This document shows positions 9,376 through 39,268 of a DNA stretch of 47,936 bases, one piece after another; position 1 is the first letter of the stretch; each line of letters starts with the position of its first letter. Both the position numbers and the translations under genes were made by a program. Source of the stretch: a virus (lineage: Duplodnaviria; Caudoviricetes). The notes beneath the pieces were generated by a model. That model was not told where the DNA came from. It ran no database searches and saw nothing but the letters and a program-made list of their open reading frames with translations. The stretch spans positions 1-47,936 of the IMG/VR virus record IMGVR_UViG_3300037467_000310. The stretch is one strand, 5' to 3'.

Positions 9376-10551
9376 CTAATCGATGACTATCTCTGGCATC
9401 TCACCCAGTGCTTTGGCTGCATGTTCGGCGCCCCTAAAATGGGCTTCGGGGAGCAGGTGCGCATAGAGGTCAACTGTCATTTGGATGCTGTTGTGTCCGA
9501 GTCTTGCTGAGAGTTCGTACATGGGCATGCCTGCTTGAAGCATGATGGCCGCATGCAAATGTCTGAGTGAGTGGACGGTGACGTTTTTGGCGGATCCTGG
9601 CCCGAACCCAGCAGCTTTGCGGGGCTTCTCCCATGCCCGGTTGTAGAAGGCTTGGTGTGTCATGGCCCCGCCCTCTTTCATGCGGAACACGGGCCCACCA
9701 TCAGCGAGGGCTTTCGCGACGAGTGGCGCTACTGCCCGCGTGGTCGAGGGCGCTAGGGACACACGCCTACGGGACTTCTCGGACTTCGGGTCACCGACGT
9801 AGCGGGCGGGATTCTCGTCCCCGCCCAACTTGTGTGCCTTGGTGATGAACACGAGCGGCGGACGTACAACCTTGCCGTCTTTGTCATAGAGAGTCTCAAG
9901 GTCAAAGTCCCGCCCCGTCAGTGCGGTCGCTTCACTGAACCGGCACCCCGTCCCTAGCAGCATGGTTAGGAACGGCTGGAAGTGTTTGTCCACGCGGCTG
10001 TAGATGGCGTTGTAGTCGTCCATGGTGATGTCATCCCCATCGTCACCCACTCTGCGCTTCTTGGGCATCCTCACGCCGTCACACGGGTTCCTAGGGATGG
10101 TTCCTAGCCGAACCTGGGTGAGCATCGCCGCGCTTAGTAGTCCGTGCTTGTTAGCGATGGTCTTCGGCGCTTTGCCGCGGGCCTGCATCCATTTGATCCA
10201 AGACACGATGTCAGCGTTCGTGAGGCCGGCGACTTTTAGTGAACCCAAAGGCCCGTTGAAATGGTTACGAAGCGCTTCCCGGTACCGTTTGATCGTGTAC
10301 GGGGTCACATCAACAAGCTGACCAATGTGGTGCTCTATCGCCTCAGCAACGGTCGGGCCTTCTAGCTCGCCATTCTCGTAAACCTTTTTGGCTTGCACCA
10401 TCGAGTCGCCGTTAGCTTCAAGCAGCAGCTTCCACCGCTCAGCCTCGGCCATGTCATGGAAGCTCAGAGAACACTGCTTGCCGTCCTCCCGCCACAACAA
10501 CGAATGGTACAGGCTGCCATCCTTACGGGCGCGCGTACGGATACTAGCCAC
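9376..10551 (-). CDS. int: Tyrosine integrase
   Basis: Catalytic motifs 'TGCRFSE', 'HSLRH', 'LGH', 'DLYAH'; AGGAGG RBS. Confidence 0.97.
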   Translation of the reverse strand: MASIRTRARKDGSLYHSLLWREDGKQCSLSFHDMAEAERWKLLLEANGDSMVQAKKVYENGELEGPTVAEAIEHHIGQLVDVTPYTIKRYREALRNHFNGPLGSLKVAGLTNADIVSWIKWMQARGKAPKTIANKHGLLSAAMLTQVRLGTIPRNPCDGVRMPKKRRVGDDGDDITMDDYNAIYSRVDKHFQPFLTMLLGTGCRFSEATALTGRDFDLETLYDKDGKVVRPPLVFITKAHKLGGDENPARYVGDPKSEKSRRRVSLAPSTTRAVAPLVAKALADGGPVFRMKEGGAMTHQAFYNRAWEKPRKAAGFGPGSAKNVTVHSLRHLHAAIMLQAGMPMYELSARLGHNSIQMTVDLYAHLLPEAHFRGAEHAAKALGEMPEIVID

Positions 10552-10753
10552 GGGGCCTGCCTCCTTTATGAATGAGAGGCTTCCCGGCTATGCGGTGATT
10601 AACGTAAGCGAAGTATGTGTTGATGCTACGCAGTACCCTCGTCTTGGGGGAGGGAATTTGCATTGCTCTCGCAGCAGCGGTGCGGATGGCATGATCCTCA
10701 GGGGCCCAACCCTTCGCCGCGTCCTCTGCTAGAAGCTTGAACTTGCGAGTCAT
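10544..10753 (-). CDS. Hypothetical protein between xis and int
   Basis: ATG overlaps xis stop (ATGA); end overlaps int start. Confidence 0.5.
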   Translation of the reverse strand: MTRKFKLLAEDAAKGWAPEDHAIRTAAARAMQIPSPKTRVLRSINTYFAYVNHRIAGKPLIHKGGRPRG

Positions 10754-10950
10754 TGCTTGCTTTCCTCGAACGCTTGGTTGATCCAGTCGATAACGTCTTG
10801 CTCGCGGTACATGACCCTGCCTCCAATTTTGGCAGAGCGGGGGCCGGTCCCACTGTGACGCATCCACCGGAGTTGCGCCGGTGTTTTCCTCAGCATCTCA
10901 GCCACCTCTTGCAAGGTAAGCAGGTTGGGAACACTAGAGGGAGCGCTCAC
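10750..10950 (-). CDS. xis: Excisionase / AlpA-like HTH protein
   Basis: 'LLTLQEVAEMLR...GPRSAKIGGRVMYREQDVIDWI'; upstream of int. Confidence 0.8.
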   Translation of the reverse strand: MSAPSSVPNLLTLQEVAEMLRKTPAQLRWMRHSGTGPRSAKIGGRVMYREQDVIDWINQAFEESKQ

Positions 10951-11579
10951 AGTGACCGCTCCCTACGGATCTTTGCCGCAAGCCCGCGCCTGTCTTGGGT
11001 GAAGCCGTTGCGGCGCAACACAGCCCCCACAGTATTTACCCGGACCCCGTGGCGCTCAGCAATGGATCGAACAGTCTCGCCTTCATTGGCAGACTTGATA
11101 ATGTCAGCGTCTCTACTAGCGTTCGCCTCGGCCAGCTTTTGCACCCGAGACTTCGCACCTTTGGTTGCTGCACCGTTGGCATTGGCTTTGGCATTGCCGG
11201 ATGTACGCATTGCTTCCCAGTCATCTCGGTTTTGCAGCGCGGTCCTGGCTTTGGCTGATCGTTCAGGTGAGCAGATTGATACGCCGTAGGCGGGCAGCCC
11301 GGCGAGTTCCCGTAGTTCGGCGGGGCTTATTTCGTGCGCGCGACTAGTGTGTCCGGCTAGTACTTTGTAAGGCCCTGCCCCGCACCATGGGCACATCTGC
11401 GCTTCGATAGCGCGGAGGACAATGTGCGGCTCGATCCGCATGACGGATCCGTACGTGCCGGCTGCTAGCTCTGATGGCTGGTGCAGGGAGTTGTGGTCCG
11501 CCATGCTTCTTGACCAGCTCTGCCCGTTGCGGCTACCGAAGCTACCCGGCAGCGTGCGGACGTTGGTATCATTGGTCAT
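10947..11579 (-). CDS. DNA-binding protein with Ros/MucR-like zinc finger and C-terminal HTH
   Basis: CPWC-x10-H-x4-H-'ISPAELRELAGLP'; C-terminal 'TVRSIAERHGVRVNTVGAVLRR'. Confidence 0.65.
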   Translation of the reverse strand: MTNDTNVRTLPGSFGSRNGQSWSRSMADHNSLHQPSELAAGTYGSVMRIEPHIVLRAIEAQMCPWCGAGPYKVLAGHTSRAHEISPAELRELAGLPAYGVSICSPERSAKARTALQNRDDWEAMRTSGNAKANANGAATKGAKSRVQKLAEANASRDADIIKSANEGETVRSIAERHGVRVNTVGAVLRRNGFTQDRRGLAAKIRRERSL

Positions 11580-11636
11580 ATCGACTCCTAGAAAGTCGGT
11601 CGCACCCCTGGATGTTCACAGCATCGCAGGGGTTTT
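11580..11636 (-). promoter_or_regulatory. Structured 5' leader, family 1 copy A
   Basis: ACCCCTG-C-GATG/CATC-CAGGGGT hairpin plus CGACT/AGTCG hairpin over the GGAG RBS; homologous to 11950..12007. Confidence 0.75.
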
Positions 11637-11655
11637 ATTTTTGTGGATCAGTTCA

Positions 11656-11664
11656 AGTTTAACA
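11656..11664 (-). promoter_or_regulatory. Extended -10 promoter for HTH-xis-int operon
   Basis: TGTTAAACT (TGnTAnnnT) about 20 nt upstream of the leader. Confidence 0.5.
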
Positions 11665-11737
11665 TCATCTGCGTCAACGGGATAGGCTGCTGCGTCAACA
11701 GGGGCGGAAAGTTCCTTGATTTCTAGGGCCAAAACGA

Positions 11738-11766
11738 GTGGAGCTAAGGGGATTTGAACCCCTGAC
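11738..11766 (-). mobile_element. attP core = 3' end of a tRNA-Ala gene
   Basis: Minus strand GTCAGGGGTTCAAATCCCCTTAGCTCCAC: T-arm plus acceptor 3' strand TAGCTCC-A (U70, A73 = Ala identity); no 5' half present. Confidence 0.85.
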
Positions 11767-11772
11767 GGATCG

Positions 11773-11800
11773 TTGAATCTACTTGATTTCTAAGTATGAT
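11773..11800 (+). promoter_or_regulatory. Promoter TTGAAT-16-TATGAT overlapped by 19-bp operator (11779..11797)
   Basis: CTACTTGATTTCTAAGTAT lies between -35 and -10. Confidence 0.6.
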
Positions 11801-11908
11801 ACTCGGTCAATCAAGTATCTGATGTGTCAGGAGTGGGCGTTAGTGGTTGACGCCGCCATCACCCGACAACACTCGTTGACGCCGACATCAAGTAGATAGC
11901 GAAGCATC

Positions 11909-11941
11909 ATACCTGAATTTCAAGTAGATAGCTGGTAGAAT
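11909..11941 (+). promoter_or_regulatory. 19-bp operator (11909..11927) and extended -10 TGGTAGAAT of HNH gene
   Basis: ATACCTGAATTTCAAGTAG; extra half-site TCAAGTAG at 11888. Confidence 0.6.
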
Positions 11942-11949
11942 TGGGTAGT

Positions 11950-12007
11950 AAAAGCCCCCGCGATGTAGTGAGCATCCGGAGGCGTGACCGACTGAGTTGG
12001 AGTCGAT
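11950..12007 (+). promoter_or_regulatory. Structured 5' leader, family 1 copy B
   Basis: GCCCCCG-C-GATG/CATC-CGGAGGC hairpin plus CGACT/AGTCG hairpin over the RBS. Confidence 0.75.
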
Positions 12008-12478
12008 ATGAACTACCCTACCCTCGAAGAAAAGTTCTGGGCAAACGTTCGCAAGGCTGACGGCTGCTGGGAGTGGATGGGCAGCAAGATCAGGGGCCAC
12101 GGACGCGTCTCAGCACCGCGGACCGTCTACGCTCATCGCTTGTCCTACGAGCTACACAAGGGGCCGATTCCCCAGGGCCTGGAGATCGACCACATGTGCC
12201 ACAACAGGGCGTGCGTCAACCCAGAACATCTCCGCGCTGTCACTGATAAGCAGAACAACGAGAACCGCGCAGGAGCCAACCCGAACAGTAAGTCAGGCGT
12301 CCGGGGAGTGCACTGGCGTCCTGATGTGAAGAAGTGGCAGGTCGTCATCCATGCGGCAGGGAAGAAATACCATGTCGGCTACTTCGTGGATCTAGCGGAA
12401 GCCGGAGCGGCGGCGGTCGCTAAACGGAATGAACTGTTTACGCATAACGATGTGGACCGACTGCCGAAAGCTGCCTGA
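12008..12478 (+). CDS. Free-standing HNH homing endonuclease
   Basis: 'CWEW', 'AHRLSY', 'IDHMCHNRACVNPEHL', AP2-like C-terminus 'SGVRGVHW'. Confidence 0.92.
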   Translation: MNYPTLEEKFWANVRKADGCWEWMGSKIRGHGRVSAPRTVYAHRLSYELHKGPIPQGLEIDHMCHNRACVNPEHLRAVTDKQNNENRAGANPNSKSGVRGVHWRPDVKKWQVVIHAAGKKYHVGYFVDLAEAGAAAVAKRNELFTHNDVDRLPKAA

Positions 12479-12488
12479 TCCGGCTCGC

Positions 12489-12522
12489 CCATACCGTCAG
12501 CACTCTACCGCTGACGGTATGG
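12489..12522. terminator. Hairpin between convergent genes (probable terminator)
   Basis: CCATACCGTCAGC-actctacc-GCTGACGGTATGG, 13-bp perfect stem. Confidence 0.65.
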
Positions 12523-12569
12523 TTCTGACACCAAAGGCCCCCACCGAAGCGAGGGCCCTTGCGCGTTGT

Positions 12570-16809: not shown

Positions 16810-17154
16810 ATGAGCCAAGCAGAATGGGGTATCCGGGAGGCCCCCAAGAACATCGACCCGGAAGACTATCGAGTAGGACGAACCCTCGCAGCACTCATGT
16901 TCCGCACGGAACAAACGCCCGAGGGATACATGAACCGCCGACCGATCACCCAGGAAGAACTGGCAAGGGGCGCGAACGTCAGCCCCGGACTCATCTCTCA
17001 GATTTGCACCGGACGTAAGCACCTAAGCAACGCCGTCCTGTTCCGCATTGCAGGGTTCCTCCAAGTAGAACCAATCGTCATCAAGCGCCCGGACCCAGAG
17101 ATGCGCCAGCAGCGCCTCCCGATGGCCGGCGCCGAGCTAGTCGGTGCAGCATGA
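16810..17154 (+). CDS. Cro-like XRE HTH regulator
   Basis: 'ITQEELARGANVSPGLISQICTGRK'. Confidence 0.8.
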   Translation: MSQAEWGIREAPKNIDPEDYRVGRTLAALMFRTEQTPEGYMNRRPITQEELARGANVSPGLISQICTGRKHLSNAVLFRIAGFLQVEPIVIKRPDPEMRQQRLPMAGAELVGAA

Positions 17155-17630
17155 GCGTCCACGTGTTTCAGGAACGTCTTCTCTGGGCGAAGGTCAACAA
17201 GACTGACACGTGCTGGGAATGGACTGCCAGTAAGAACTCAAATGGATACGGCAAGTTCGTTGTATTCACCGATGGCAAGCATCGTTCAATGCTCGCCCAC
17301 CGCGTCACTTACCAGATGCTTGTGGGCGAGATACCAGAAGGCGCGTCGATCGATCACATCTGTCATAACCCCAGCTGCGTAAACCCTGACCATCTGCGGC
17401 CAGCCTCCGCGAAGCAGAACCTGGAGAACCGAAGGTCCGCGAACAGCAACTCTGTCTCCGGAGTGCGTGGAGTCTCGTGGTCCAAGCGCAGCAGGAAGTG
17501 GCGGACAACTGTGATGCATCACGGGCGCCAGCATTCCGCCGGGAACCACGACGATCTTTCAGAGGCTGAAGCCGCGGTTATTGAACTTCGCAATCGCCTC
17601 CATACATACAACGACGTTGACCGGCACTGA
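17151..17630 (+). CDS. Free-standing HNH homing endonuclease (paralog of 12008..12478)
   Basis: 'CWEW','AHRVTY','IDHICHNPSCVNPDHL','SGVRGVSW','NDVDR'. Confidence 0.92.
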   Translation: MSVHVFQERLLWAKVNKTDTCWEWTASKNSNGYGKFVVFTDGKHRSMLAHRVTYQMLVGEIPEGASIDHICHNPSCVNPDHLRPASAKQNLENRRSANSNSVSGVRGVSWSKRSRKWRTTVMHHGRQHSAGNHDDLSEAEAAVIELRNRLHTYNDVDRH

Positions 17631-30112: not shown

Positions 30113-30186
30113 ATCGTCTTGGTGTAGTGGTAGCCCATCGGTCTCCAAAACCGAAAGCGCGGGTTCGATTCCCGCAGACTTTGCCA
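30113..30186 (+). tRNA. tRNA-Trp(CCA), encoded CCA end, two acceptor mismatches
   Basis: TCGGT-CTCCAAA-ACCGA anticodon arm, GCGGG-TTCGATT-CCCGC T-arm, G73. Confidence 0.85.
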
Positions 30187-30319
30187 AAACGTACCCGAAA
30201 CGTATAGCTCCCACGGGAGAGCATCAGCCGGGAACGCAACACCGGAACTTACAGACCAAGTTCACCGGAAGCACCAAAGAACGGTCACCTTTACAACCCA
30301 TGAGCAAGGGGCAAAGAGC

Positions 30320-30520
30320 ATGAGCAGAGCCAAAGGCTGCATAATCAGCCGAGTCATGAACGAAGGCGACCAAGCCGACCGCGAAGCACTCCAAACCCTG
30401 CTCAACTCCGACGCAACAAACATCGGCGTCGCACGCACACTCACCGACGCGGGCGTTCCACTATCGGAACACGCGATACGCAGGCACCGGAAATCTGACT
30501 GCTCATGCGGGTGGCTCTAA
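30320..30520 (+). CDS. Small hypothetical protein ('IRRHR..CSC')
   Basis: Abuts exonuclease gene. Confidence 0.65.
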   Translation: MSRAKGCIISRVMNEGDQADREALQTLLNSDATNIGVARTLTDAGVPLSEHAIRRHRKSDCSCGWL

Positions 30521-31321
30521 ATGGGTGCCCTCGCGAAACGGTTAGCGCCGAAGATCGCACCCTCCGCTGCCAAGCAGGTCCGGATCCTCACGCTTGATAT
30601 TGAGAACGCCCCGAACCTCGCCCACGTGTGGGGTCTGTTCAATCAGAACATCAGCCTCTCCCAGTTGCAGGAAACCGCGACCGTCATATCCGTAGCCGCG
30701 AAATGGTACAGCGACAAAGAAGTTCTGTTCTTTAGCGACCACCACGACGGTCACGCCGAGATGATCACTAAGATCCACGCGCTCGTCTCCGAAGCTGACC
30801 TGATCGTCGGATACAACAGTGCCGGGTTTGACATGAAACACCTCAACCGCGAATTCATCCTCGCCGGCCTGAACCCGCCTGCACCGTACAAGAACGTGGA
30901 CCTGCTCCAGACAGTCCGTAAGCAGTTCAAGTTCGCTTCCGGGAAACTTGACCACGTCGCCCAGCAGCTCGGGCTTGGTAAGAAAACCAGCCACATGGGT
31001 CACGAACTATGGGTACGGTGTATGGCCGGTGATGACAAAGCGTGGGAACTAATGCGGAAGTACAACATGCAAGACGTTGTACTCACCGAGAAACTGTACG
31101 ACCGGCTGCGCGCATGGATCCCGAACCACCCGCACCTGAGCATGTACACAGGCGAGGCATGGGGCTGCCCAGTCTGCGGCAACAAAGACCTCTCCAAGTT
31201 CCGGGCAGGCACCTCATACGCCAACGTACAGCGATACCGCATGTACCAATGCACGTGCGGCCACTGGGTACGCGGAACCAAGAAACTCCAAGACGCCACA
31301 CAAACCAGGAGCGCACGATGA
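30521..31321 (+). CDS. RNase H-fold / DEDD-like 3'-5' exonuclease with C-terminal zinc ribbon
   Basis: 'LDIE', 'GYNSAGFD', 'YNMQDV', CPVC...CTC. Confidence 0.85.
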   Translation: MGALAKRLAPKIAPSAAKQVRILTLDIENAPNLAHVWGLFNQNISLSQLQETATVISVAAKWYSDKEVLFFSDHHDGHAEMITKIHALVSEADLIVGYNSAGFDMKHLNREFILAGLNPPAPYKNVDLLQTVRKQFKFASGKLDHVAQQLGLGKKTSHMGHELWVRCMAGDDKAWELMRKYNMQDVVLTEKLYDRLRAWIPNHPHLSMYTGEAWGCPVCGNKDLSKFRAGTSYANVQRYRMYQCTCGHWVRGTKKLQDATQTRSAR

Positions 31322-31478
31322 GAATTGGCAACTGGCCGGATCCGATGTGAGACGCCCACTGCTCTATCACCGCCCGCGTCGCTGGTTGAGGACGTGGAAG
31401 TAGCCGTACGGTGACATCCACGAATGCGCACGTACGGCAACACAAATAAAACATCATCATGTCAATAAGGAGAACAGC

Positions 31479-31694
31479 ATGCCCCGCATCGCAGTCAGCC
31501 CATCAGATCTTGATATTCCAATCGCGTTCTACGATGACGCTACCAAGTGGGTCGTAGACGACCATGAGCGCCTACACATCATTGGCGCCAATGGCAACTT
31601 GGCCTCGTACAACCGAGGAAGTTGGGCAGCCGTCCAGTTCTCACCTTGCGTTGGAGGGCCCGACCTGTGCGCCGAATCCGAGGCGCAATCTTAG
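31479..31694 (+). CDS. Hypothetical protein
   Basis: TAAGGAG RBS. Confidence 0.65.
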   Translation: MPRIAVSPSDLDIPIAFYDDATKWVVDDHERLHIIGANGNLASYNRGSWAAVQFSPCVGGPDLCAESEAQS

Positions 31695-31781
31695 ACAGAT
31701 CACACTGCGTTCCTAGGAGAAGCAGTCGGCAACCCACAACTAAACAGCGCTGACCGTTGTACATGAGCAACGGTCAGGCAT

Positions 31782-31854
31782 GGGTTTCTAGTCCAACGGC
31801 AGAGACGGCAGCTTCAAAACCTGCACAGTCCCGGTTCGAATCCGGGGAAACCCA
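31782..31854 (+). tRNA. tRNA-Leu(CAA), short variable arm, C31-C39 mismatch
   Basis: GGGTTTC/GAAACCC acceptor, A73, anticodon arm GCAGC-TTCAAAA-CCTGC. Confidence 0.75.
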
Positions 31855-31859
31855 CGCAA

Positions 31860-31930
31860 GGCGATATGGGCGAGCGGCTAGCCGGTTGTCTGCAAAACAG
31901 CACAGACCGGTTCGACTCCGGTTATCGCTT
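31860..31930 (+). tRNA. tRNA-Cys(GCA)
   Basis: GGCGATA/TATCGCT, GTTGT-CTGCAAA-ACAGC, U73. Confidence 0.9.
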
Positions 31931-31936
31931 CGAAAT

Positions 31937-32017
31937 GGAATGTACCCCAACGGTGGGAAGCTGTCTTGAAAACAGTGGCCGGTGAAACGGTAGCGGGTTC
32001 GACTCCTGTGCATTCCG
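31937..32017 (+). tRNA. tRNA-Ser(TGA)
   Basis: GGAATGT/GCATTCC, GCTGT-CTTGAAA-ACAGT, long variable arm, G73. Confidence 0.88.
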
Positions 32018-32030
32018 CGCTATTCGATAC

Positions 32031-32103
32031 GGGAGTAGAAGAGGCAAGGTGCCAGCGCTGACTGTAAATCAGTGCACGGTTGGTTCGATTCCAACTGCTC
32101 CCA
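32031..32103 (+). tRNA. tRNA-Tyr(GTA), non-canonical D and variable arms
   Basis: GGGAGTA/TGCTCCC, GCTGA-CTGTAAA-TCAGT, A73. Confidence 0.75.
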
Positions 32104-32299: not shown

Positions 32300-32779
32300 G
32301 TGTTCGTCATGCTCACTGGTCAGGTAGGGCTCGTAGCGGACAAACGATTCTGGATGGGCCGTGCAATACTCCGCATCACACGATGGCAATACCACCACTG
32401 CATCATCGCGACCAGTGACACGCACTGCATCAGCTCCGAACCAGGCGGCACACGACGCCGGTTGATAAGCGACTACACCAACATTGCCTGGTCCAACTAT
32501 GCGATGACCGAGAAACAAGCACACCTTGTTGCCGGGATAGCAGAACACTCCATCGGCGTCCGCTATGACTACCTCTCCTGTGTCGCACACGCTGTTGCAG
32601 CCATCACACGCATCGACACGCCACTGTGGATCCAGACGTGGCTCGCTCAACGCGCACCCACCACATGCAGTGCACTCGCCCAAGTAGCAGTCAACGCGGC
32701 AGGGCTACGAACACCACACGCACCACTACCCACACCCAACGACTGGCACCTACTGTGCCGGGCACGAGGATGGGCCTGA
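32300..32779 (+). CDS. Permuted papain-like (YiiX/YebB-type NlpC/P60) protein
   Basis: His before Cys order: 'YHHCII...GVRYDY...TCSAL...PTPND'. Confidence 0.65.
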   Translation: MFVMLTGQVGLVADKRFWMGRAILRITRWQYHHCIIATSDTHCISSEPGGTRRRLISDYTNIAWSNYAMTEKQAHLVAGIAEHSIGVRYDYLSCVAHAVAAITRIDTPLWIQTWLAQRAPTTCSALAQVAVNAAGLRTPHAPLPTPNDWHLLCRARGWA

Positions 32780-33099
32780 TGCCACGCGCCAAGAAGATAT
32801 GCGCCAAGCCAGGATGCCCAGAAGTAACCGCGCAAGGAACCTGCCTCAAGCACCGCCGCGAAGCAGACAAGGCAAGAGGCTCACGAGAAGCACGCGGCTA
32901 CGACTACGCACATCGACAGTTCCGCAAAGCGTTCATCGAAGAACACCAAGCTGGCACGCTCATCTGCTGGCGATGCCGCGAACTAATACCAGCAAATGAA
33001 CCATTCCACCTCGGACACGATGACCACGACCGCAACCTATACCGCGGCGCTGAGCATGTCCGATGCAACACCGCAACGAGCGGACGCACCAACAACTGA
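32779..33099 (+). CDS. HNH endonuclease (packaging-associated position)
   Basis: 'CAKPGC', 'RGY...H', 'CWRC', 'HLGH', 'EHVRCN'; upstream of terminase. Confidence 0.8.
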   Translation: MPRAKKICAKPGCPEVTAQGTCLKHRREADKARGSREARGYDYAHRQFRKAFIEEHQAGTLICWRCRELIPANEPFHLGHDDHDRNLYRGAEHVRCNTATSGRTNN

Positions 33100-33111: not shown

Positions 33112-33167
33112 CACAGGAGTAGCTGCCTGTGTCAGTGAGGCCCAGCATCCATAGTGCTGGGCCTCAC
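33112..33167 (+). promoter_or_regulatory. Structured leader, family 2 (GUAGCU-loop hairpin plus AGGCCC/GGGCCU stem)
   Basis: CACAGG-agtagctg-CCTGTG then 13-bp GTGAGGCCCAGCA/TGCTGGGCCTCAC. Confidence 0.6.
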
Positions 33168-33188
33168 GCATTCCTATGGAGAATACAC

Positions 33189-34073
33189 ATGCGCACCTGC
33201 GCCCTCTGCCAAAGTCCCATCCCATCTGACCGCCACGGCAAAGCTAAGTACTGCACGATCCAATGCAGCCGCAAAGCCAACCGTGATAAGTCCACAGTCG
33301 AATGCAGTAAGGATGGATGCACCCGATTTGTGCGAGCGCGAGGAGTATGCGCCTCCCATTACAACCAGGCTTATGCGCCCACTCGCCACGTCAAGAAGCT
33401 GGTCGCCTGCGCATGGTGCGGGACAGAAGTACTCAAGCATACTGGCGGTGGACGCAAGTATGGTCCGGTGTGCTCAGACCAATGCCGCCAGTACCTTGCC
33501 ACACCATACTGCGTACTACCTAAAGACCACTGGGCTCGATGGTACGGCAAGGCAAGCACTTGGACGCCGCCCAAGCAAAGCGCCTCCAGATACGTCAGCA
33601 ACACGTGCGACGATTGTGGCACGCGCTTCACCGAATACAACCCGCACAACGTGCTAGCCAACTACAGTCGTTACTGCTCGGACCAGTGCAGTGCACGAGT
33701 ATCAAGACGGGCACGTAAAGCCAGAGAGCATAGCGCTTCAGGAACATACCGATGGGGCGAAGTTATCAAGCTGTGGATCGCATCAGGTAGGCGCTGTAGC
33801 TACTGCGATGTGGTCATGGCTGAACAGCCTGACCCCGATCATGTTGTACCCCTGAGTCGTGGCGGACGTAATGACATGGGCAACATCCTTCCCGCCTGTC
33901 ACCTGTGCAACTCTGACAAGTGTGACCTGACATTGGAAGAGTGGGCAGCCGAGCGAGCGAGACTAGGTAAGCCGCCCGTTCGCACGGCTCTGCCATTCAC
34001 TGACAGCCGCTTCCGACACCTCACATTAGACACTGCACAAGGCCTTGCATGGAGACATCAAAGCGCCGCATGA
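33189..34073 (+). CDS. HNH endonuclease with multiple N-terminal zinc fingers
   Basis: Repeated CxxC...CSxxC; 'CSYC...DHVVPLSRGG..N...ACHLCNSDK'; GGAG RBS. Confidence 0.9.
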   Translation: MRTCALCQSPIPSDRHGKAKYCTIQCSRKANRDKSTVECSKDGCTRFVRARGVCASHYNQAYAPTRHVKKLVACAWCGTEVLKHTGGGRKYGPVCSDQCRQYLATPYCVLPKDHWARWYGKASTWTPPKQSASRYVSNTCDDCGTRFTEYNPHNVLANYSRYCSDQCSARVSRRARKAREHSASGTYRWGEVIKLWIASGRRCSYCDVVMAEQPDPDHVVPLSRGGRNDMGNILPACHLCNSDKCDLTLEEWAAERARLGKPPVRTALPFTDSRFRHLTLDTAQGLAWRHQSAA

Positions 34074-39122: not shown

Positions 39123-39193
39123 GTGGAGTTGGTGAAGTGGTATCACGTCGGTCTCCAAAACCGAAGTCGCAGGTTCGATTCCTGCACGCTGCG
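39123..39193 (+). tRNA. tRNA-Trp(CCA), second copy, in head module
   Basis: GTGA/TCAC D-arm, TCGGT-CTCCAAA-ACCGA, GCAGG-TTCGATT-CCTGC, G73; weak acceptor stem. Confidence 0.85.
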
Positions 39194-39268
39194 CTTTCCT
39201 ATTCCGGGATGGATGAGGAAGAGCAAGACCAGCCGTGATGGCTAAGAAAACAATCAGATCAGGAGGCC

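Follow-up and report, generated by a model that had tools for sequence, protein, structure and literature searches.

In a temperate phage genome, two unrelated genes that diverge from an attachment core each begin with a leader that is probably one copy of a portable sense/antisense cassette, in which a small antisense RNA would brake translation of the opposite gene. As judged from sequence, this antisense RNA is very probably made. Each cassette is predicted to hold two facing promoters and to yield an mRNA leader fully complementary to an RNA of about 60 nt, in which a short linker joins a 5' hairpin to a terminator hairpin. The antisense RNA would be transcribed from a promoter concealed in codons 3-5 of the gene and would pair with the whole leader and its Shine-Dalgarno sequence (SD), keeping translation low; such pairing seems likely to start where the long hairpins carry their variable loops, and to run on into a full duplex that blocks ribosome entry. 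The class of mechanism is known; neither Rfam nor the literature searched yielded this family of RNAs, an account of how it is spread among actinophages, or mention of a resemblance to the Streptomyces RNA scr4677.

The window, that is, the entire 47,936-nt stretch analysed, is the genome of a temperate phage and carries a tyrosine integrase gene (9376-10551, minus strand, by profile matches), an excisionase-like HTH_17 gene (10750-10950, minus strand) and, between the two leaders where a preliminary description had placed attP, a likely attP core (11737-11766) that on the minus strand looks like a tRNA 3' end. This core is 77-85% conserved beside two related integrases and gives weak T-arm-like Rfam matches; we take the tRNA type to be Ala. 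The two genes point away from it. Gene A (10947-11579, minus strand, ATG at 11579) encodes a 210-aa protein with a MucR/Ros-like zinc finger and a helix-turn-helix, for which the Pfam ROS_MUCR and HTH matches are weak and below cut-off and the Atlas neighbours are ROS_MUCR at 0.94; it has 12 homologs, and no loci of gene A homologs were obtained from viral contigs. It heads a gene run that includes the excisionase-like gene, which overlaps its stop, and the integrase. Gene B (12008-12478, plus strand, ATG at 12008) encodes a 156-aa free-standing HNH endonuclease of the homing-endonuclease type (Pfam HNH_3, E 1.4e-17; zf-His_Me_endon; PHROG 3593, E 2.7e-62) and is followed by a terminator-like perfect 13-bp inverted repeat (12489-12522). 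Direct and inverted repeats surround the att core (11669-11702, 11777-11803/11903-11929, 11846-11890, 11888-11932) and are likely integrase arm or excisionase sites. Elsewhere in the window lie three further HNH-like frames without a cassette (17019-17630, 32569-33099, 33123-34073), tRNA genes for Trp, Leu, Cys and Ser (30113-32103) with a weak extra tRNA match at 32031-32103, and a second Trp gene at 39123-39194.

Two phages with 74-75% identical integrases share the same att core and carry neither cassette. A hairpin at 12532-12557, past the inverted repeat, is also present in a relative without gene B; in one of the two phages it lies 150 bp from the core, as against 766 bp in the window. 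The absence of cassette and gene from the same attP in two relatives, and the occurrence of the leader before many unrelated genes, are what might be seen if it acted at the level of DNA, mobilising the gene by way of a single-strand hairpin end or a recombination site (similar to attC or an IS200/605 end), with G·T pairs marking the active strand. We regard this as very improbable, since the promoter box, the 7-nt spacing and the U-tail described below together make up a transcription unit, the element has no fixed recombinase linked to it, and a second end was not found in the window.

Leader A (11580-11637, minus strand) reads into the ATG at 11579 and leader B (11950-12007, plus strand) into the ATG at 12008. 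The preliminary description had pointed to a shared leader of about 58 nt at this place, and indeed the two are identical at 44 of 58 positions without gaps (76%), with a local score of 62 against maxima of 25-31 in five shuffled windows. Two hairpins form in each, and the z-scores on both strands range from -3.8 to -4.4. Stem 1 does show the bulged C and the pair of compensatory changes that had been noted; pairing there is less complete than had been described, in that copy B adds a C·A mismatch when read on the mRNA strand. A covariance-model scan of the window gave no third copy. The leaders had also been called duplicates of one another. Among 177 other copies, 36 are nearer to A and 34 nearer to B than A and B are to each other, so a local duplication is not supported, and A and B were seemingly acquired separately.

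On the strand opposite each gene, an RNA of about 61 nt is predicted. The putative RNA at leader A (11580-11642, plus strand; fold -24.5 kcal/mol, z -4.27; 64.6 bits with covariance model R2) comprises a 5' hairpin at 11580-11600, a linker, a 3' hairpin at 11604-11633 with a bulged G at 11626, and a U-tract at 11633-11642, and it would be complementary to the entire leader and SD of gene A. Its counterpart at leader B (11947-12007, minus strand, starting at 12007; -23.3 kcal/mol, z -4.40; 68.8 bits with R2) has a 5' hairpin at 12007-11987, a 3' hairpin at 11983-11954 with a bulged G at 11961 and a U-tract at 11953-11950, and would cover the SD, GGAG, at 11999-12002. Candidate antisense promoters lie within codons 3-5 of both genes, as TG-G-TATCAT in gene A (11564-11572, plus strand) and GG-TAGGGT in gene B (12015-12022, minus strand), each standing 7 nt ahead of its predicted start (11580 or 12007). 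Upstream of each leader is an extended -10 box (TG-n-TAnnnT), as the preliminary description had stated, and sequence together with enrichment across the family marks them as the predicted mRNA promoters: TG-T-TAAACT for gene A (11664-11656, minus strand) and TG-G-TAGAAT for gene B (11933-11941, plus strand). A sigma-70 scan missed all four -10 boxes and both terminators because it requires a -35 element and a bulge-free stem.

The leader belongs to an RNA family of 137 non-redundant copies, plus 60 in a held-out set, in Arthrobacter, Gordonia and Mycobacterium phages and in Streptomyces chromosomes. Carriers in culture include the Arthrobacter phages BillyTP, Persistence and Bauer and the Gordonia phage Faith5x5. 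As the preliminary description had surmised, it is not a named family: the element in the window, at 20 phage loci and at 13 Streptomyces loci found no match in Rfam at the gathering score or at a loose E-value. A BLAST search with the leader returned 12 copies in 10 Arthrobacter phages, with an HNH gene behind 11 of the 12. A pattern for the SD hairpin alone retrieved 119 viral stretches, in 106 of which the long hairpin was also found by covariance model R1, itself trained on part of those 119; with a pattern for the long hairpin alone, the SD hairpin covaries as well. The anticipated covariation among homologs was borne out, with both sides changing in 14 of 19 pairs of a 54-sequence alignment, with a covariation score reached by none of 500 shuffles, and with 84.5% paired compared with 29-51% when the structure is slid, in a control that ignores kinship among the sequences. 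At 38 bits or above there are 179 distinct copies, of which 137 remain after filtering to less than 90% identity (15 loci below 38 bits and one short Bauer match having been left out beforehand); the copies are mutually related, and the counts given here are not of independent events.

A second branch, with a G-C pair replacing the outer A-U pair, was first met in Gordonia phage Lysidious and occurs in many Gordonia phages and in Mycobacterium phage LilSpotty. It supplied the held-out set: of 120 loci with TGGCCGAC, 98 were scanned and 22 left out, and R1 matches 72 of the 98, giving 60 non-redundant copies that include two named phages. A pattern for the TAACC-linker branch yielded one locus. 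Genome searches found copies mainly in Streptomyces and other Actinomycetota. Single Streptomyces genomes hold three copies each (L436, L447 and L501; likewise L442, L454 and L492), and at L436 the copy is arranged back to back with genes for DUF6879 and XRE-DUF5753. Viral contigs richer in AT (L137, L164, L174, L245, L246) hold copies with longer 5' hairpins, and the hosts of these possibly lie outside the Actinomycetota. The clan is likely to extend beyond R1. Divergent cassette-like leaders scoring 26-29 bits occur at L231 (269-343) and L235 (266-343, minus strand); the ORF after the L231 leader has an opposite-strand box and, by eye, resembles what we take to be the start of IS605 TnpB. 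At L653, L659, L660 and L667, divergent hairpin leaders with an opposite-strand box precede HNH genes and are missed or barely scored by R1.

Several features favour a working structure on the strand opposite the gene. Interior non-canonical pairs across the 137 copies, read on the mRNA strand, are A·C or C·A in 51 cases and G·U in 5, and the A·C pairs read as G·U on the opposite strand. Within the SD hairpin, a single pair reads C·A on the mRNA strand in 133 of 137 copies, including 40 of the 44 whose SD hairpin deviates from the first search pattern; where stem 1 was not fixed by the search pattern there are 30 A·C against 4 G·U, and in the held-out set 20 against 4. Fold energy is lower on the opposite strand in 109 of 137 copies. 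An A-run preceding the long hairpin becomes a U-tail on that strand, a modest one with mostly 3-5 T in 8 nt. RNAalifold finds a consensus stem 2 in the opposite-strand alignment and none in the mRNA-strand alignment, the two having been built from different sequence sets. Wobble pairs, U-tail and the promoter at a fixed distance are the grounds on which we favour the opposite strand.

These observations bear directly on the preliminary description, which had viewed the leader as a cis-acting mRNA structure that hides the SD until a protein or an outside RNA opens it. The element is portable, covaries and is fused to the SD and start of unrelated genes, as had been proposed there for nuclease and DNA-binding genes, and the SD does lie inside stem 2; Watson-Crick covariation is blind to strand, and an upstream mRNA promoter would place both hairpins in the 5' untranslated region. 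The part in which the mRNA leader is held shut until opened in trans fared less well: on the mRNA side the SD hairpin is weak (median -6.1 kcal/mol), the ratio of A·C to G·U pairs there is about 10:1, the consensus for stem 2 appears only on the opposite strand (in different sequence sets), and the promoter on that strand is left unexplained. An opening trans factor is unsupported, and the antisense RNA that the element itself is predicted to encode would close the ribosome-binding site. We consider a cis-acting leader of this kind improbable and retain the antisense cassette as the better account.

The signal for the antisense promoter lies within the coding sequence. Counting downstream from the last paired base, A, T and A occupy positions 8, 12 and 13, and on the opposite strand this reads as TAnnnT; such a box occurs in codons 3-5 of 126 of the 137 copies, in comparison with 2 of 136 annotated starts without the element taken from two of the same phages, and it recurs in 57 of 60 held-out copies and 75 of 92 genome matches. 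It sits at the main register in 97 copies, shifted by one base in 28 and by one the other way in 1, and is preceded by G and G (67% each), placing a GG/TG-TAnnnT box 7 nt from the first base of the predicted RNA. The main sigma factor of actinobacteria uses extended -10 boxes that are rich in G. No clear consensus for a -35 box of the antisense promoter was seen among the copies. A cause at the level of the protein was considered and ruled out, the box not being an amino-acid effect because it occurs in several registers and is missing in homologs without the module. Among the closest 30 of 74 gene B homolog loci, 27 have a called start: a hairpin leader accompanies the box in 8 of the 9 that carry it, 17 lack both box and leader, and one start is mis-called. 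R1 exceeds 38 bits in 6 of the 74 loci. The mRNA strand, too, has a TAnnnT box 7-22 nt ahead of stem 1 in 80 of 137 copies and in 43 of 60 held-out copies, compared with 7 of 137 control windows; this box lies upstream of both hairpins, and its position peaks at 13 nt before stem 1.

Facing -10 boxes set about 75-85 nt apart, together with a hairpin and U-tail on the antisense strand, could also serve transcriptional interference, where the opposing promoter itself would do the work, the hairpin would be its terminator and the RNA a by-product. Such an arrangement would not call for a fixed linker, a bulged base or conservation of the 5' hairpin with its U·G pair (133 of 137 copies), and we rate it as improbable, marginally more so than the cis-acting leader. 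The antisense cassette has points against it as well: an mRNA promoter is seen in no more than 80 of 137 family copies and 43 of 60 held-out ones, the U-tail is modest, 67 of 125 downstream proteins lack a nuclease match, ORFs behind several Streptomyces copies reach only 10-15 codons, and scr4677 had only subtle measured effects, as set out below.

The genes behind the cassette are diverse. When those of the 137 copies were tabulated, leaving aside 10 without an ORF call and the two window genes, which were scanned separately, 125 proteins remained, many cut at the locus edge. Nucleases of five families make up 58 of them (36 HNH_3, 9 HNH, 4 endonuclease VII, 4 GIY-YIG and 5 T5orf172/MUG113), while 10 have other matches and 57 have none. 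Set beside a type I toxin-antitoxin system, which pairs a toxic protein with an RNA antitoxin less stable than the mRNA, this nuclease share is the observation that bears on the comparison. In Streptomyces chromosomes the cassette also precedes DUF6415, HATPase-like and unknown small genes, and several copies there head ORFs of 10-15 codons. Annotated starts differ from those fixed by the cassette in Persistence gp34 (L004, 9604 and 9628, respectively), Richie gp96 (L010, 1513 and 1558), Bauer gp40 (L006, 8442 and 8577) and Lysidious gp82 (L296, 908 and 932).

A further possibility, to which we assign a low but not negligible likelihood, is that the RNA is autonomous and acts in trans on a protein or on other mRNAs through a C-rich anti-SD loop, the genes on the opposite strand merely hitch-hiking. 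The 5' end, linker and bulged base are near-invariant from phages to Streptomyces, the promoter box is kept before the ORFs of 10-15 codons, and one study describes only subtle effects of scr4677 on its neighbour (PMC3896431). Set against this, an SD-like motif in 191 of 197 copies and an ORF of at least 40 aa in 190 of 197 are kept in register with the RNA, and the loops are hypervariable, with 54 different 6-nt loops among 159 scored, so that the GUGA loop core shared by A and B, once presented as conserved, is not a family trait. Under the sense/antisense cassette, hypervariable loops are expected because each RNA need match its own template only. The computed net duplex energy is about -78 kcal/mol for cognate pairs, as compared with -30 to -33 kcal/mol for the cross-pairs between A and B.

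Among the closest known RNAs, and potentially related, is scr4677, which PMC2602773 and PMC3896431 describe as an RNA of about 70 nt opposite SCO4676, confirmed by northern blot and RNA-seq in three species; a supplement to PMC3765725 gives 71 nt. According to PMC3896431, overexpression changed the neighbouring mRNA only subtly, loss of RNase III gave no rise, and a translation test failed. The published 5' ends disagree, one paper placing the end 15 nt upstream of the annotated start and another value being given elsewhere, and the start predicted here matches none of them exactly. At scr4677-type loci retrieved with its published probes, the same promoter rule places the -10 box identically in 113 of 114 and gives a predicted length of 70-71 nt in 93 of 111; with the caveat about the 5' end, these loci serve as a positive control for the antisense reading. 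Both are small RNAs opposite a gene start with the promoter region in the first codons, and they have in common a 3' hairpin with one bulged base, 6-nt loop types, a TRACC linker and the 7-nt distance that separates a -10 box from the outer pair in the 5' hairpin. Unlike the cassette, scr4677 is about 70 nt long, has a longer 5' hairpin that holds the start codon and is tied to one gene, SCO4676. No SCO4676 orthologue lies next to the cassettes in the window, where the genes are, by domain content, an HNH nuclease and a MucR-like/HTH protein. The window, the 20 phage loci and the 13 Streptomyces loci do not reach the gathering score of the Rfam entry RF02673, with which true scr4677 loci score 110-222 bits. 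Conversely, the cassette models give 9-15 bits on scr4677 loci (E 0.017-0.93; best E 0.017 and 0.66), and 8 of 13 weak matches for R1 and 3 of 4 for R2 lie at the scr4677 site; by covariance model the two families stay separate. With its 246 nt, the RF02673 model aligns to the mRNA strand at SCO4676-type loci (L517-L522), whereas the papers report an RNA of about 70 nt from the opposite strand; the entry seems overlong and in the wrong orientation.

Several established systems share the proposed logic. IS10 RNA-OUT, P22 sar and CopA/CopT are short cis-antisense RNAs made from a facing promoter that cover a ribosome-binding site, with pairing initiated at loops, and the variable 6-nt loops and upper-stem bulge of the cassette resemble those of CopA/CopT. 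Each of the three controls the gene of one element, and they are likened to the cassette by mechanism alone; CopA/CopT and P22 sar are both listed in PMC5415839. Escherichia coli SymR is a 77-nt cis-antisense RNA opposite the mRNA 5' end of the nuclease-like toxin symE; its promoter is embedded in the coding sequence, translation is repressed and silent changes to the -10 box were tested, according to PMC1891008. The cassette follows the same logic, with an antisense promoter inside the target ORF, and by sequence it has the features of SymR and RNA-OUT: its own promoter inside the ORF and facing the leader, and a predicted RNA complementary to the SD region. It differs in placing one RNA scaffold before many unrelated genes, whereas SymR/symE is one gene family under SOS control and has no Rfam match to the cassette. 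In T4-like phages, a start-site hairpin in the mRNA limits translation of homing endonuclease genes and is bypassed by a late promoter, as described in PMC2988022. Both are structures at the starts of homing endonuclease genes; the T4-type hairpin acts in the mRNA, whereas in the cassette it is the opposite strand that suits the fold and supplies a putative promoter for it. No T4-type promoter starting inside the mRNA-strand hairpin was met in the cassette, the mRNA promoter lying upstream of both hairpins. Literature searches, which most subscription journals fell outside, did not find the element described; PMC8594479, PMC8388888 and PMC11678152 contributed nothing further on it, and a search of published supplements for sequence strings gave no family member.

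It is possible, though we hold the view only tentatively, that a single ancestral cassette (promoter, two-hairpin RNA, SD, start and four codons) spread as a plug-in brake through phages and chromosomes of the Actinomycetota and recombined before many other genes as well as nucleases of at least five families, with the loops giving copy-specificity and scr4677 as a domesticated member; the cassette would then give selfish nucleases a burst confined to entry or make prophages addictive. More speculatively, harmful or regulatory genes such as nucleases could be kept as stand-alone prophage units, and at most a brief burst of protein might occur on entering a cell still without the antisense RNA. 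How temperate phages carry free-standing nuclease genes without harm to the host has been little studied outside T4. In several phage records the annotated start codon is not the one that the cassette sets. Our findings define an abundant RNA family in actinobacterial phages, link the orphan scr4677 to a much larger set while suggesting that scr4677 covers the start codon of its gene, and may provide many natural, apparently orthogonal sense/antisense pairs for gene control in actinobacteria.
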